IMG/VR virus record: IMGVR_UViG_3300021512_000005
Coordinates: 9,040 to 73,039 of that record
Direction: 5' to 3' (one strand)
Length of the DNA stretch: 64,000 nt
Source: a virus
Shown: positions 13,822-28,433 of the stretch, piece after piece
Numbering within the stretch: position 1 is the stretch's first letter
How the letters are laid out: every line of letters starts with the position of its first letter
Position numbers and translations under genes: made by a program
The notes under the pieces: model-generated
Databases searched by the model: none
What the model saw: only the letters and a program-made list of their open reading frames with translations
What the model was told of the DNA's origin: nothing

Positions 13822-14865
13822 TTAATTTATTCCGTAAATCTGACCCATGCCTTCAGGGAACTTATTAACAAATGTTCTATAAGTTTTAAGAAGGAATTTC
13901 TCAGAATCACCAGTTTTTGCAAGTCTTTCAAAAGAAATATCTTGTAGTACACGCTGTTGTACAAAATTTGTATTAATACAGAAAATTCTCTTTTGATCAG
14001 TTGCAGTAGGCATAAACTGGCTGGAAAGGATTGGAATACGACCAACTACTGTCTGAAGACTTGGAACCTGAAGTCCCCAAGCAATAGTTGTTTCAGGATT
14101 AGTATATCTTGCATAATCCATCATTTGGTTAACAAGACTTGTTGCAGTATAAGGATCTGTAATTAAAAGATTTGGAGCACCTTTTGCAACGAAACAATCA
14201 TTTACAAGTTCCTGGACATCAGATAAAGTAACTTCTGCACCACTTAGATCTGTTGTATTTGATGTTAAAATTTTAATTAGACCATCATGCTGATAAGAAT
14301 TTGATGAATTATCACCAACGAGAATTGCCTGTTCAATTGCTTCATTCATTGATTGAGTTTTATTAAGAACTTCACGCTGCATACTGGACTCAAAATGAGC
14401 ACCAGCAATTTGTGCAACTCCTGTAACTCGTCCAATAATACGAAGATAACGAATTGTTTCTGAGGCCTCTTCTCTTGTATCATCAGTTTCTGCAAGTGCA
14501 GGGTCTTCTGCACCCCAAGATGCTGATCCTCTATTAGTAACACGATAATATTGTGCTACTTTACCTTTATTTGTAACCTTTGGAATAAGTCCAATTAAAG
14601 GTGTTAATCTTCTTGTAATATCAATTACATCTTGATCCCATACAATAGGTGTAAATGCATATCCAGCAGCACCACTGGAAGAACCAACATTTACTGCTTT
14701 TTCAAGGGTATCATTTTTTTGTACAAGACGACCATCTCTCATCATCATTTCAAATTTATTCATTGCATCATCATAAACAGAACCATCAGGCATGTCTCCA
14801 AATGATGCTTTATATAGTGATTCACTGTCTATTTCAACAGCTCCACTCCACATTGCGCCTGCCAT
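13822..14865 (-). CDS. Major capsid protein (HK97 fold)
   Basis: 347 aa after protease and scaffold; 'TPLIGLIPK', 'EQAILVGD', 'DGLIK', 'GRIPILSSQFMP', 'LAKTGDSEKF'. Confidence 0.85.
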   Translation of the reverse strand: MAGAMWSGAVEIDSESLYKASFGDMPDGSVYDDAMNKFEMMMRDGRLVQKNDTLEKAVNVGSSSGAAGYAFTPIVWDQDVIDITRRLTPLIGLIPKVTNKGKVAQYYRVTNRGSASWGAEDPALAETDDTREEASETIRYLRIIGRVTGVAQIAGAHFESSMQREVLNKTQSMNEAIEQAILVGDNSSNSYQHDGLIKILTSNTTDLSGAEVTLSDVQELVNDCFVAKGAPNLLITDPYTATSLVNQMMDYARYTNPETTIAWGLQVPSLQTVVGRIPILSSQFMPTATDQKRIFCINTNFVQQRVLQDISFERLAKTGDSEKFLLKTYRTFVNKFPEGMGQIYGIN

Positions 14866-14867
14866 AA

Positions 14868-15365
14868 TTAATTACCTCCAAAATGTGCATGTATAATATT
14901 TCCAAGTGTAGATGTTGTTGTGGTTTCAGTAACCGGGGAAACATCCATATTTGCCTTATATAAAGGACTTGATTTAATTGCTTCTAATTCAGATTCAAGT
15001 TTTTTAACTCTATCTTCTTCTTCATCTACATTTCCTCTTTTTCGTCTCTCTTCCTCTTCTCTCTTTCGTCTCTCTTCCTCTGTCTCTTCAACTGGCTCTA
15101 CTTCATCTTCATTTTTCATTGTAACTTGTTTTTGTGCTGCAAGTTCCTTTGCTTGTGCTGAAACTCTTGCCTCAAGTTCTTCCATTCTCTTTCGCATACT
15201 TTCTGCTTCTTCAAGAAGACGATCATAATCTTCTGCTTTTTCAATTACTTCTTGTTCTTCAATCATTTTTGTTACTGTATTTTCAATATAAGCTGTAAGT
15301 TCAGCTGGTTCAAAACGAACAATATTTTGATCTGTTGGGTCTATTTCCATATAATTTTCCTCCAT
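14868..15365 (-). CDS. Scaffolding protein
   Basis: Glu-rich coiled coil immediately upstream of the capsid gene. Confidence 0.7.
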   Translation of the reverse strand: MEENYMEIDPTDQNIVRFEPAELTAYIENTVTKMIEEQEVIEKAEDYDRLLEEAESMRKRMEELEARVSAQAKELAAQKQVTMKNEDEVEPVEETEEERRKREEEERRKRGNVDEEEDRVKKLESELEAIKSSPLYKANMDVSPVTETTTTSTLGNIIHAHFGGN

Positions 15366-15595
15366 ATATTTTTTTTTAATTTTGCGTGGATATTTTTAAA
15401 ATCCCATGTCCACATCATGGTTTTTAATTGCCTCCACGCATTAGTATCATTGGCATAATAAATTTTAATAAATAATAATTTGATTTTGATTTTCAATTAT
15501 TTTTGTTGTAGTAAATTTAAAATAATCTACATGTTTTGTAAAATCAAAACAAATAATACTTTGATCTATTGAGTCTATTTTCATTTTATTTACCT

Positions 15596-26681: not shown

Positions 26682-26760
26682 TCTCCAACCTCATATTTTT
26701 TCGTAACCAATTACGATTAATTGCTTCATCATCAATTTTAATAGTTTTTATTTTTTTCAT
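26665..26760 (-). CDS. Micro-ORF (31 aa) coupled to ART-like gene
   Basis: ATGA overlap; MKKIKTIKIDDEAINRNWLRKNMRLENDKEN*. Confidence 0.45.
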   Translation of the reverse strand: MKKIKTIKIDDEAINRNWLRKNMRLENDKEN

Positions 26761-27686
26761 AATTCATCACCAAATGATACATCATCTTTATAAATAGTAA
26801 TAGGATTTGAAGATATTGTAAATTCTCTTTCACTGAATATATCAGATAAACCCCAAAATAACCAAATATCTTTTTTTGGAAATGAGTGTCTAATAATTAT
26901 TCCATCCTTCATTGCAAAGGCTTTTGCAATATTAAAACGTTCTGACCATGATGATAAAGATGCTAATTCTACTTTACATTTTCCATCTTTATTTAATGTT
27001 TCTTTAATTTTTTCAGCTCTATTTTCTTTAATTCCACGATATAATTTTATATTATCTGTATTTGGAAACATTTTATCTATAACTTGATCAATAAATTTTT
27101 TCATTGCAATAACTTTTTGTAAATAATTTTTATCTAATGCTTTTTCTTTAAGAGTATCTTTTAATTTTTCAATATCAATATCATTTGGTAAATGTGTATC
27201 TAAATTTTTTCCAGTTAATTCATTTATTGCTATTTGTAATTTAACAGAATCTATAAACTGTGGATTATCAAAAAATTTTTCAACACTTTCTTTAACTGAA
27301 TTATCTTTTATATTTCCAGCATAAAATGTAATATCATCAAACATATTTTTAAATTCTATTGCACCTTTTGTAAGTTCAACAGGCACATGAATTTGATGAT
27401 CTTTAAATCCAATATCTTTCCATGTTTGAAATAAATTTGTCCAATCCCAATCAATTCCTATTTCTTTAAATTTATTTGAATATTTATTTAATTCATCACT
27501 GAAATCTAAAGAATCATAATATTTTTGATATTCTTTTTTAACAAATAATTTTTCTTTCCTATTTTCTTCTTTTCTACCAAGCCGCTGTTTACGTTGAAAT
27601 ATTTTACCTTGACGATGAACTGTTACATATCCTTCATGTATTCCACGTTCATCTTTTAATAAATTTAATAAATTAATTTCAATCAT
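26757..27686 (-). CDS. Leader-family ADP-ribosyltransferase-like protein
   Basis: Likely start ATG 27686 (MIEINLLNLLK-DERGIHEG); KLYRGI, LSSWS, SEREF. Confidence 0.68.
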   Translation of the reverse strand: MIEINLLNLLKDERGIHEGYVTVHRQGKIFQRKQRLGRKEENRKEKLFVKKEYQKYYDSLDFSDELNKYSNKFKEIGIDWDWTNLFQTWKDIGFKDHQIHVPVELTKGAIEFKNMFDDITFYAGNIKDNSVKESVEKFFDNPQFIDSVKLQIAINELTGKNLDTHLPNDIDIEKLKDTLKEKALDKNYLQKVIAMKKFIDQVIDKMFPNTDNIKLYRGIKENRAEKIKETLNKDGKCKVELASLSSWSERFNIAKAFAMKDGIIIRHSFPKKDIWLFWGLSDIFSEREFTISSNPITIYKDDVSFGDEL

Positions 27687-27756
27687 CTTTATCTTTATTT
27701 TCTTTATTAATAAATATAAAATCTTCAAATTGCCCAACAAATTTTTTTTGATCCAT
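27679..27756 (-). CDS. Micro-ORF (25 aa) coupled to ART gene
   Basis: TAATG overlap; MDQKKFVGQFEDFIFINKENKDKDD*; its end overlaps the next ATG. Confidence 0.45.
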   Translation of the reverse strand: MDQKKFVGQFEDFIFINKENKDKDD

Positions 27757-28433
27757 TATATTTCCTCTAATTTAATATTTATTTCATTTTGATTTATATT
27801 ATAATCTATAACTTTAAATTTTGTACCATAATCAAATAATACTTCATCTTCAGATGAAAAATGAGATAAACCACTAACTACAACTCCATTTTTACTTTTA
27901 ATTTCCATATATATTGGTGGAGTATTTCGTGGATAAAGATATGCGAATGCTTTTGATAATTTTTGATTTATTGTTGTAGATGTAAAAGGTTTTATTTGAA
28001 TTATACCTTTTTTAATTTCTTGCATAAATTTATCAAATTCAATTTTATTATTAATAGAAACTCCTCTATAAACAATACCATTAAATTTTGGTGCATCATG
28101 TAAAAAATTAGATATTGATTGAATATCTTCTGGTGGTAAATATGAATTAAATATATTATCTGGAATACGTCGCATTGTTTTATTTATATGTTCATATCCT
28201 GATTTACAATAATTAATTACATTATTTATATCTTCTTTCCTATTAGGATTATTATTAATCCATAATTCAACATCTTTTAATGAATTAATATATTTATCTT
28301 TATTTGATTCAACTTTCTTTTGCCCAAGTCTTTGCTTACGCTGAAATACTTTACCTTGTCGATGAACTGTTACATAACCTTCGTGAGTTCCACGTTCATC
28401 TTTTGATAAATTTAATAAATTAATCTCTATCAT
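27756..28433 (-). CDS. Leader-family VIP2/Alt-like ADP-ribosyltransferase
   Basis: YxxINxxxR helix, IVYRG, FTSTT and EDEVL (ExE) motifs. Confidence 0.82.
   Translation of the reverse strand: MIEINLLNLSKDERGTHEGYVTVHRQGKVFQRKQRLGQKKVESNKDKYINSLKDVELWINNNPNRKEDINNVINYCKSGYEHINKTMRRIPDNIFNSYLPPEDIQSISNFLHDAPKFNGIVYRGVSINNKIEFDKFMQEIKKGIIQIKPFTSTTINQKLSKAFAYLYPRNTPPIYMEIKSKNGVVVSGLSHFSSEDEVLFDYGTKFKVIDYNINQNEINIKLEEI

Follow-up and report, generated by a model that had tools for sequence, protein, structure and literature searches.

We analyzed a 64,000-nt stretch of viral DNA (positions 9,040 to 73,039 of the IMG/VR record IMGVR_UViG_3300021512_000005; hereafter, the window) and found that an eight-residue peptide with the pattern h-E-h-[D/N]-h-x-x-L (h, hydrophobic residue; x, any residue), exemplified by IEINLLNL and IEIDLDEL, recurs in the proteins of its head gene module. 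This peptide (hereafter, the tag) was found on a series of putative cargo proteins, on the MuF protein, and at the C-terminus of the prohead protease. Judged from the sequences, it is probably a procapsid-loading tag that is subject to Lys-specific trimming. On the cargo proteins the tag lies in a leader, which ends in LSK, LLK, LEK, LNK, LAK, LTK, or LQK and is followed by a basic segment.

Searching with the capsid protein brought up 13 related loci in IMG/VR and a single contig of a metagenome-assembled genome (MAG). Motif counts in relatives refer to five nearer loci (L001, L002, L003, L005, and L006; 89 open reading frames [ORFs]) and seven more distant loci (85 ORFs); L004, a duplicate of L005, and L008, which comprises a partial capsid gene and downstream sequence only, were left out of these counts.

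Tag or scaffold fusion in prohead proteases

The protease and its tag are encoded at the following positions:

15596..16537 (-): prohead serine protease, 313 aa (Pfam Peptidase_S78; score 24.1 bits, cut-off 21)
15599..15622 (-): protease tag IEIDLDEL at the extreme C-terminus (...FKIEIDLDEL, then stop)

Scaffold fusion is a classical route of a protease into the procapsid. Of 68 protease homologues, the closest 62 were examined; 48 of these were scaffold-fused, with an SPLYK box and a …AHYGGN-type end, and none of the 48 ended in the tag. Of the 14 that were not scored as fused, 10 ended exactly in the tag (IEIDLDEL, IEIDLTKL, FEINLGEL, VEIDLSELI, and similar sequences directly before the stop codon). 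The terminal protease tag and covalent scaffold fusion are mutually exclusive in this set (0/48 versus 10/14). When a tree was built from the catalytic domains of 61 sequences (P0078, whose catalytic part was too short, was left out), the tag-ended proteases fell into four groups, and well-supported branches forced at least three switches. That an eight-residue peptide has repeatedly replaced scaffold fusion is the strongest argument for the tag being a head-entry device, and the alternation of the two provides a natural experiment pointing to function.

The profile and the modeled fold are those of an HK97-type protease. A Foldseek search with the AlphaFold2 (AF2) model retrieved the proteases of Epstein–Barr virus, human cytomegalovirus, varicella-zoster virus, and herpes simplex virus, together with T4 gp21 (5jbl), with E-values of 3e-5 to 2e-4, and the predicted local distance difference test (pLDDT) of the catalytic part was 88–97. 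S155, S176, and S207 were invariant and H114 was nearly invariant among 52 sequences, and these are candidates for catalytic residues. The tail (residues 292–313) was modeled with pLDDT mostly below 50 and gave no information on whether the tag docks in cis.

The N-terminal domain of the protease, which is covalently attached in the window (pLDDT 95–97), was encoded as a separate small ORF in L005/L004, L003, L002, and L001. Three of these pieces ended in the tag or a degenerate tag, and that of L001 had an internal tag.

In some relatives the protease gene was split by an inserted ORF of 257–312 aa (L005 7154-9375, L004 127-2348, and L003 7554-9999). The 312-aa insert of L005/L004 contained CxxC pairs and may be a homing endonuclease; there, the detached N-terminal piece that ends in the tag was 65 aa.

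Frequency and positions of the tag

A preliminary description of this DNA had drawn attention to an IExxL motif shared by the leaders and the protease, and all strings that it quoted were found at their minus-strand places when the coordinates were checked. In the 109 strand-consistent ORFs of the window, IE[ILV].L occurred 14 times, compared with a shuffle mean of 2.75 (maximum 9 in 1000 shuffles), and 10 of the 14 were at termini, compared with 0.79 expected. When a semi-strict form of the pattern was scanned through open frames of at least 50 codons in all six frames of the window, 10 matches were obtained, every one lying on the coding (minus) strand within a head-module gene, either at one of its two ends or at a boundary between domains; the other five frames gave no semi-strict match, and none was found in the remaining 9 kb of the record.

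The seven leaders of the window are paralogous DNA copies, so that the window counts are inflated and not independent, and independent evidence must come from relatives. The strict pattern, [ILVM]E[ILVF][DEN][ILVT]..L, occurred 14 times in the five nearer loci compared with 0.31 in shuffles, a 45-fold enrichment (maximum 3 in 500 shuffles), and was absent from the 85 ORFs of the seven more distant loci. Both in the window and among relatives, the motif of the preliminary description thus stands above chance. The nearer-locus matches were located at the C-termini of proteases, at the C-termini of small ORFs corresponding to the N-terminal domain of the window protease, at the N-termini of small or enzyme-bearing proteins, and directly after the MuF domain (four of four MuF genes). 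At the protein level, the tag was maintained between genomes of 25% and 34–42% G+C.

A Lys residue after the tag and conserved candidate cut sites

We collected 43 distinct strict instances, 13 of which were C-terminal (zero or one residue past the last Leu) and 30 of which lay elsewhere. A Lys residue stood at +1 or +2 in 26 of the 30 non-terminal tags (17 at +2 and 9 at +1). The residue preceding the tag was Lys in 20 of the 43 instances and the initiator Met in 12. This positional rule indicates that tag positions 1–8 can stand alone and that x-Lys is added where the following part needs release, in keeping with the scheme of docking and subsequent cleavage in the preliminary description.

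Candidate cut sites, written here with a slash at the putative scissile bond, were located in four head proteins as follows:

13822..14865 (-): capsid protein of SU10/HK97 type, 347 aa (Pfam SU10_MCP, 88.7 bits)
14695..14706 (-): candidate capsid maturation site L-E-K/A, K56/A57 (TLEK/AVN)
14809..14838 (-): capsid N-terminal VEIDSESLYK, partly similar to the tag and followed by K19/A
14868..15365 (-): scaffold, 165 aa, coiled-coil rich, between the protease and capsid genes; candidate sites IEK/A (VIEK/A) at 15234-15245 and LYK/A at 14952-14963
15863..15874 (-): candidate post-catalytic site of the protease, I-E-K/A (VIEK/A), K224/A225
28420..30051 (-): portal, 543 aa (Pfam Phage_portal, 115.2 bits); candidate site Y-N-K/A at 28579-28590

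The capsid search yielded 143 homologues at E ≤ 1e-10. In 81 aligned sequences, K56 was conserved in all 81 and A57 in 79, and P3 was Phe in 33, Leu in 28, and Ile in 13 (74 in all), while the stretch directly N-terminal of K56/A57 varied in sequence and length. The two scaffold sites, comprising E42 and K43 (hydrophobic-Glu-Lys/) and SPLYKA, were invariant in six of six sequences. In the protease, a box F..[IVL]..K..CxGxxC following the last strand of the catalytic domain was present in 59 of 62 homologues; the AF2 model placed this last strand at residues 218–223, and pLDDT fell below 50 at residues 225–228, right after K224. The portal K/A site was found in five of six portals. In the five window head proteins, [LIY].KA occurred 6 times compared with 1.43 expected (5 of 1000 shuffles reached 6); no excess was observed in the other window ORFs (14 versus 13.66).

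Conservation in relatives was thus found for each of the Lys sites that the preliminary description had singled out, and its proposal that the protease cuts after Lys, read from the sequences, gained in plausibility from these sites and from the Lys rule at the non-terminal tags. As a parallel it had named HK97 gp4 as cutting after Lys, a point that is unconfirmed in the available passages of PMC12749128, which do not give the residue. The distant loci retained the capsid and portal K/A sites and lacked the tag, so that the cleavage specificity looks older than the tag.

Partial look-alikes of the tag were observed at the N-termini of the capsid and scaffold proteins. In the capsid alignment of 81 sequences, D13 was conserved in 72, Y/F18 in 81, and K19 in 59; the equivalence of this look-alike with the tag is uncertain because distant loci without a cargo tag have it too. 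Scaffold N-termini were tag-related in L005 (VRLEVDELTK) and L002 (VRLEIPELEK) and degenerate in the window, and a relaxed pattern matched two scaffold N-termini in the related loci.

The portal presented a separate similarity to the capsid protein. Its C-terminal box (28519-28581) is a 21–24-residue copy of the mature capsid N-terminus (14635-14697); identical residues numbered 13 of 24 for the window pair by BLASTP (E 1e-4) and 17 of 22 for the L007 pair (E 4e-7). Like its capsid counterpart, the box begins exactly at the candidate K/A. It was found in five of six portals (also those of L007, L010, L012, and L014), varying with the capsid version of each lineage, and the L001 portal was without it. 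On these similarities, the box may mimic the capsid N-arm and anchor to the shell either the portal or a peptide liberated from the portal. An acidic Pro/Glu/Gly/Ser linker encoded by four 21-nt tandem repeats (28597-28699; repeat family D12) immediately precedes the candidate cut site.

Tag-bearing cargo and MuF proteins

Genes from position 1 to approximately 46,000 all lie on the minus strand. In transcription order, the large terminase gene is followed by the portal gene, five leader-sharing genes (27756-28433, 26757-27740, 25395-26681, 24384-25319, and 23467-24387), a few small ORFs, the MuF gene, two genes for kinase-like paralogues, the gene for a 465-aa protein, and the genes for the S78 protease, scaffold, and capsid. 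Pfam matches of the head genes were Phage_portal, Phage_Mu_F, Peptidase_S78, SU10_MCP, and Terminase_6C. The tag-bearing proteins and the related candidates are as follows:

27756..28433 (-): ADP-ribosyltransferase cargo, 225 aa (Pfam ADPrib_exo_Tox, 48.2 bits, above the cut-off of 23.4); tag at 28407-28430, LSK, hairpin
26757..27740 (-): ADP-ribosyltransferase (DRAT-like) cargo (Pfam DRAT, 27 bits, above the cut-off of 25); tag at 27660-27683, LLK, hairpin; the true start is likely the ATG at 27686
25395..26681 (-): ADP-ribosyltransferase-like cargo, 428 aa (Pfam DRAT, 23.4 bits, under the cut-off of 25; phrog_832); Cys/His N-domain, tag at 26529-26552, LLK, hairpin
24384..25319 (-): cargo candidate, 311 aa; basic hairpin present, N-terminus …KKLLKFVK, without IExxL
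23467..24387 (-): HExxH metallopeptidase-like cargo, 306 aa (phrog_33618); tag at 24355-24378, LLK, hairpin
20278..21732 (-): MuF protein, 484 aa (Phage_Mu_F, 61.6 bits, residues 84-195); MuF domain, tag and hairpin (20947-21081), HExxH domain
19124..20278 (-): kinase-like paralogue, 384 aa; internal tag at 19967-19990 after a 95-residue N-terminal domain
18270..19127 (-): PI3/PI4-kinase-like cargo, 285 aa (Pfam PI3_PI4_kinase, 23.7 bits, under the cut-off of 27.1); tag at 19095-19118, LNK, second type of basic hairpin
16679..18076 (-): cargo, 465 aa; tag at 18047-18070, with LAK and a basic segment after it
4336..4752 (-): tag-bearing protein; tag at 4696-4719, then a basic segment; the start is likely the ATG at 4722
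4109..4336 (-): basic protein, 75 aa; weak C-terminal instance KKIELNLKDYKND at 4112-4150
3568..4116 (-): tag-bearing protein, 182 aa; tag at 4090-4113, LLK, hairpin; homologues P0012-P0014 and P0016

Three leader-bearing proteins scored as ADP-ribosyltransferases, two of them above the Pfam cut-off and one just below, and their PHROG matches were to the ADP-ribosyltransferase-bearing ends of head proteins of other phages and to an Alt-like ADP-ribosyltransferase. The C-terminal part of the 465-aa cargo protein, for which neither a Pfam nor a PHROG family was found, looks like an ADP-ribosyltransferase by eye alone. The C-terminal HExxH region of the MuF protein was homologous to the 23467-24387 protein, and the two kinase-like genes are tandem duplicates (repeat families D4 and D7-D9).

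At the DNA level, seven window leaders derive from a single 125-nt repeat and are 65–90% identical. The leader composed of the tag and the ERGTHEGYVTVHR… hairpin occurred in only 17 of 5.8 billion proteins, all from close relatives, among which domains had been swapped: the kinase-like domain of P0003 is joined to hairpin A and that of the window to hairpin B. The N-terminus type of the 24384..25319 protein recurred in P0015 and P0017. The isolated leaders and the Cys/His N-domain gave no Pfam match at E-values up to 10, and no PHROG match extended over the leader part. Of the 29 residues after the leader Lys, 8 were Lys or Arg and 3 were Asp or Glu. Beyond this charge, nothing in the sequences spoke for the proposal of the preliminary description that the hairpin would tether cargo to DNA. 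The tag preceded three different basic segments in different proteins, a variety equally compatible with a specific role and with one based merely on general charge.

Two further instances named in the preliminary description were weak, and IExxL is not kept there in relatives: LKIELSLIEK (21691-21720) within the MuF N-terminus, MQNLLKIELSLIEK, and the C-terminal instance of 4109..4336. Relatives of the latter protein (L005 5968-6195 and L002 4920-5135) have the tag at the N-terminus instead.

Two families of small elements were also observed beside the tag. The Cys/His domain of approximately 40 residues (…NKFCTIHCHG…CFPTK…AQHKAI) stands ahead of the tag in several proteins (window 26556-26681, L005 400-834, and L001 3857-4027) and matched phrog_3684, of unknown function, and no Pfam family. 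In a family of very basic small proteins (window 3277-3549 and 4109-4336, L005 5968-6195, and L002 4920-5135), the tag or its last residues are followed by FRLxGSKDKKKRK; the start of 4109-4336 keeps only …DELTK of the tag.

Proposed role of the tag and alternative explanations

The reading that we favor, and to which we give somewhat better than an even chance, is that the tag serves for procapsid loading, that the protease then cuts after Lys, and that the enzymes leave with the DNA. In this model, the clade would tag every separately encoded protein destined for the head interior, that is, about ten cargo enzymes (ADP-ribosyltransferases, kinase-like proteins, and HExxH proteins), MuF, the prohead protease, and the split N-terminal piece of the protease. 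The tag would operate at either end of a protein: a C-terminal tag would close the protein, and an N-terminal or interdomain tag would be given x-Lys. The x-Lys matches the conserved [LFI]-x-K maturation points of the capsid, scaffold, protease, and portal, so that the S78-type protease probably cuts there. Having been cut after Lys inside the head, the cargo would lose its tag, and the freed enzymes would exit together with the DNA, in the manner of T4 Alt and the T4 internal proteins.

The claim of the preliminary description that IExxL docks cargo to the procapsid is supported indirectly but strongly, by the bearers of recognizable function, all of them head-interior proteins (the protease, MuF, and Alt-like ADP-ribosyltransferases), and by the exclusivity with scaffold fusion; as the docking partner, the capsid protein is not favored over the scaffold by these data. 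The scaffold N-terminal region and the inner face or propeptide of the capsid protein are both candidates for the receptor. Co-folding of the capsid, the scaffold, and a 45-residue leader scored 0.00 against a mark of 0.32, without controls, and speaks neither for nor against binding; the capsid N-terminus (residues 1–82) had AF2 pLDDT of 38–53 and was equally uninformative on docking.

Several observations weigh against loading and Lys-specific release. Four proteases scored as unfused were without a terminal tag, namely P0022, with an internal tag before another domain, P0039, with a scaffold-like end, and P0070 and P0077, which had no tag and may be incomplete. A tree-aware independent-pairs test of the link between tag and fusion found only two informative pairs (p 0.5), with which it is underpowered and cannot reach significance. 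Tag-like ends were of low confidence in AF2 monomers. The mutual agreement of the seven window leaders is not independent evidence, as they are copies of one repeat. Four of the 30 non-terminal tags had no nearby Lys, and some of the 30 are probably false positives in coiled coils or scaffolds. The bare hydrophobic-x-Lys tripeptide occurred 67 times in the five Lys-rich head proteins and is unspecific; it is too common to define a site by itself, so that accessibility or further determinants must matter. Finally, the 24384..25319 protein has the hairpin without the tag.

One alternative was composition: the motif might arise by chance in proteins rich in Ile, Lys, and Glu, or reflect a translation-start signal at the nucleotide level. 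The looser IExxL was enriched only about twofold in the window (23 observed versus 11.96 expected), and this figure and the G+C content of 19–35% across 2-kb segments of the window speak for such an origin. The 45-fold enrichment of the strict pattern in related loci and its absence from distant ones are contrary to it, as are the location of tags at C-termini and internal boundaries, not at starts alone, and the lack of matches in the other five frames; the chance reading is already contradicted, and this explanation as a whole is extremely improbable. We consider it very unlikely that recombination is the main purpose of the leader, which would then act as a cassette or homology arm for effector swaps as in polymorphic toxins, with conservation of the peptide as a by-product. 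The seven repeat copies are what such a cassette would leave, as are the swaps in close relatives and the rarity of the leader in the 5.8 billion proteins; but the tag is held at the protein level across genomes of different G+C content and is joined to three unrelated downstream segments and also placed at C-termini, and cassette exchange is compatible with a loading tag without replacing it.

Two alternatives concede a function to the peptide and place it elsewhere. If the motif were only an extended recognition sequence of the protease, as substrate or pseudosubstrate, its copy at the C-terminus of the protease would be autoinhibitory or self-associating and the cargo would enter otherwise. 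The candidate P3–P1 residues after 26 of the 30 non-terminal tags agree with this, as do the partial look-alikes just ahead of candidate sites at the capsid and scaffold N-termini and, in the available part of PMC9958956, the inactivity of T4 gp21 imposed by its own terminus. We judge it rather unlikely, given that the 13 extreme C-terminal tags have no Lys and nothing to remove and include small non-protease pieces, that exclusivity with scaffold fusion marks a localization device, and that the conserved capsid site, [LFI]-x-K/A, lacks a preceding tag; the protease tail was also undocked on the catalytic domain in the AF2 model (pLDDT <50), although this is weak evidence. The leader could also serve chiefly as a propeptide that silences toxic enzymes (ADP-ribosyltransferases, peptidase, and kinase-like proteins) in the cell making them until its removal by the head protease, with loading achieved via another feature, such as the hairpin or contacts with MuF or the portal. 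A tag on the non-toxic protease, on its N-terminal piece, on MuF, and at C-termini is not explained in this way, nor is one tag in front of unrelated folds, which makes a propeptide role quite unlikely, even though the cargo enzymes are of toxin type, the hairpin is commoner than the tag in the window (seven copies, one without IExxL), and the MuF protein SPP1 gp7 enters the head by binding the portal, according to the available part of PMC5576092.

Comparison with known systems

To our knowledge, a short removable capsid-loading address is well documented essentially only in T4 and its relatives, and we know of no established route by which the injected proteins of most other tailed viruses reach the head. 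New here are the sequence of the eight-residue tag, its use at both ends of proteins, its presence on cargo, MuF, and protease alike, and the predicted Lys at P1. If loading by the tag is confirmed, the injected arsenal of the clade (several ADP-ribosyltransferases, kinase-like proteins, and metallopeptidase-like proteins) would become readable from sequence, and a small handle would be available for packaging foreign proteins in HK97-type shells, with encapsulin loading as a point of comparison.

Fusion or nesting of protease and scaffold is known from the assemblin precursors of herpesviruses and from some phages, and HK97 gp4 has a C-terminal targeting tail. The window protease resembles these in its fold, which matches the assemblins, in the scaffold fusion of 48 of its 62 relatives, and in that its route to the procapsid would likewise lie in a C-terminal element. 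It differs in that the window protease and nine other homologues have an eight-residue peptide in place of the fusion, and in that the same peptide occurs on cargo.

In T4, a capsid-targeting sequence (CTS) of approximately 10 residues at the N-terminus of IPI-III and Alt guides these proteins into the scaffolding core, and gp21 removes it; this background, on which the preliminary description had relied, was confirmed in the available passages of PMC9958956 and PMC7411985. As far as the available passages of PMC9958956, PMC7411985, and PMC5694885 go, the CTS and the tag are alike in being short N-terminal peptides on non-essential head-interior proteins, including an ADP-ribosyltransferase, in standing next to a three-residue protease motif (hydrophobic-x-charged; a candidate motif in the case of the tag), and, presumably also here, in delivery with the DNA. 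As in T4, several unrelated proteins that would lie in the head interior share one short terminal peptide. The sequence of the tag is unrelated to the CTS, as judged from the predicted P1 and the protease profile and not from an alignment to the T4 CTS. The candidate P1 here is Lys, whereas that of T4 is Glu; the protease here scores as HK97 type (Pfam S78), even if gp21 is among the matches to its fold, and the capsid protein is of SU10 type. In contrast to the CTS, the tag is also C-terminal, is borne by the protease and MuF, alternates with scaffold fusion, and occurs on about ten cargo genes in one 73-kb genome. The tag appears to act like a CTS but not to be a member of the CTS by descent.

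In the giant phages SPN3US and phiKZ, the propeptides of many ejection proteins are removed at one motif, and in SPN3US the C-terminal propeptide of the protease has been proposed as a targeting signal into the prohead (available passages of PMC7411985 and PMC5694885). In the same passages, these propeptides mostly exceed 100 residues and are cut at A-x-E, and no short tag common to cargo and protease is described.

MuF polymorphic toxins of temperate phages comprise a MuF domain and a variable toxin, frequently a metallopeptidase or an ADP-ribosyltransferase, and co-delivery with DNA has been proposed (PMC5576092). In the window, only the 20278-21732 protein has this architecture of MuF and a variable C-terminal domain; most of the cargo is free-standing behind the tag and not fused to MuF. 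The window MuF also differs in having the tag and a candidate cut site ahead of its C-terminal domain, and words beginning with "cleav" occur zero times in the main text of PMC5576092.

Encapsulins load unrelated cargo into an HK97-fold shell by a short C- or N-terminal peptide; the targeting-peptide consensus of Family 1 is SDGSLGIGSLKRS, with an N-terminal TVGSL variant, in the available part of PMC8346489. On the basis of that part, h-x-h-G-S-L-x-K is shared with tag variants of some relatives (…IDLGSLAK and …FDIGSLSK), a resemblance of four to five residues in a subset of instances that may be due to chance and serves as a lead only. Encapsulin peptides, in contrast, stay uncleaved; they occupy a pocket made by the N-terminal helix and the P-domain of the shell protein. 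It is unlikely that the tag is the viral counterpart of this cargo-loading peptide and binds the inner face or the N-terminal segment of the HK97-fold shell directly; if it were, peptide-addressed loading would predate the split between capsids and encapsulins or have arisen in parallel to it, and the tag would load a changeable kit of enzymes together with protease and MuF. In that case, with partial look-alikes of the tag at the capsid and scaffold N-termini, cargo may gain entry by imitating the assembly handle of the capsid protein.

Genomic context

The parent record is a linear IMG/VR virus contig of 73 kb with an estimated completeness of 69%. A tblastn search with the capsid protein against 50,697 phage records gave no match among isolates. 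The related contig locus lies in a MAG labeled Planctomycetota, and one capsid homologue is labeled Candidatus Dojkabacteria; we trusted neither label as an indication of the host. Beyond the head genes, the window contains a replication module that includes a PrimPol-D5 helicase, an ATP-dependent ligase, a NucS-like nuclease, and an intein-bearing anaerobic ribonucleotide reductase. Positions of the terminase and of three genes of this module are as follows:

30721-32076 (-): large terminase (Pfam Terminase_6C)
41645-43852: PrimPol-D5 helicase
43855-44466: nuclease with a NucS C-terminal domain
49963-51111: ATP-dependent DNA ligase

NucS is more common in archaea and actinobacteria, and the nuclease is a weak hint of an archaeal host. 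The anaerobic ribonucleotide reductase (54554-57331; NRDD, 505 bits) is split by an intein with a LAGLIDADG domain. Two tRNA genes, for Lys(UUU) and Asn(GUU), were found at 52034-52109 and 63622-63694 and fit the codons favored by an AT-rich genome. A 477-aa protein (6124-7557) consists of approximately 12 degenerate 44-residue (132-nt) repeats rich in Leu, Ile, Lys, and Asn (repeat families D1, D3, and D5) and is possibly a fibre or decoration protein.

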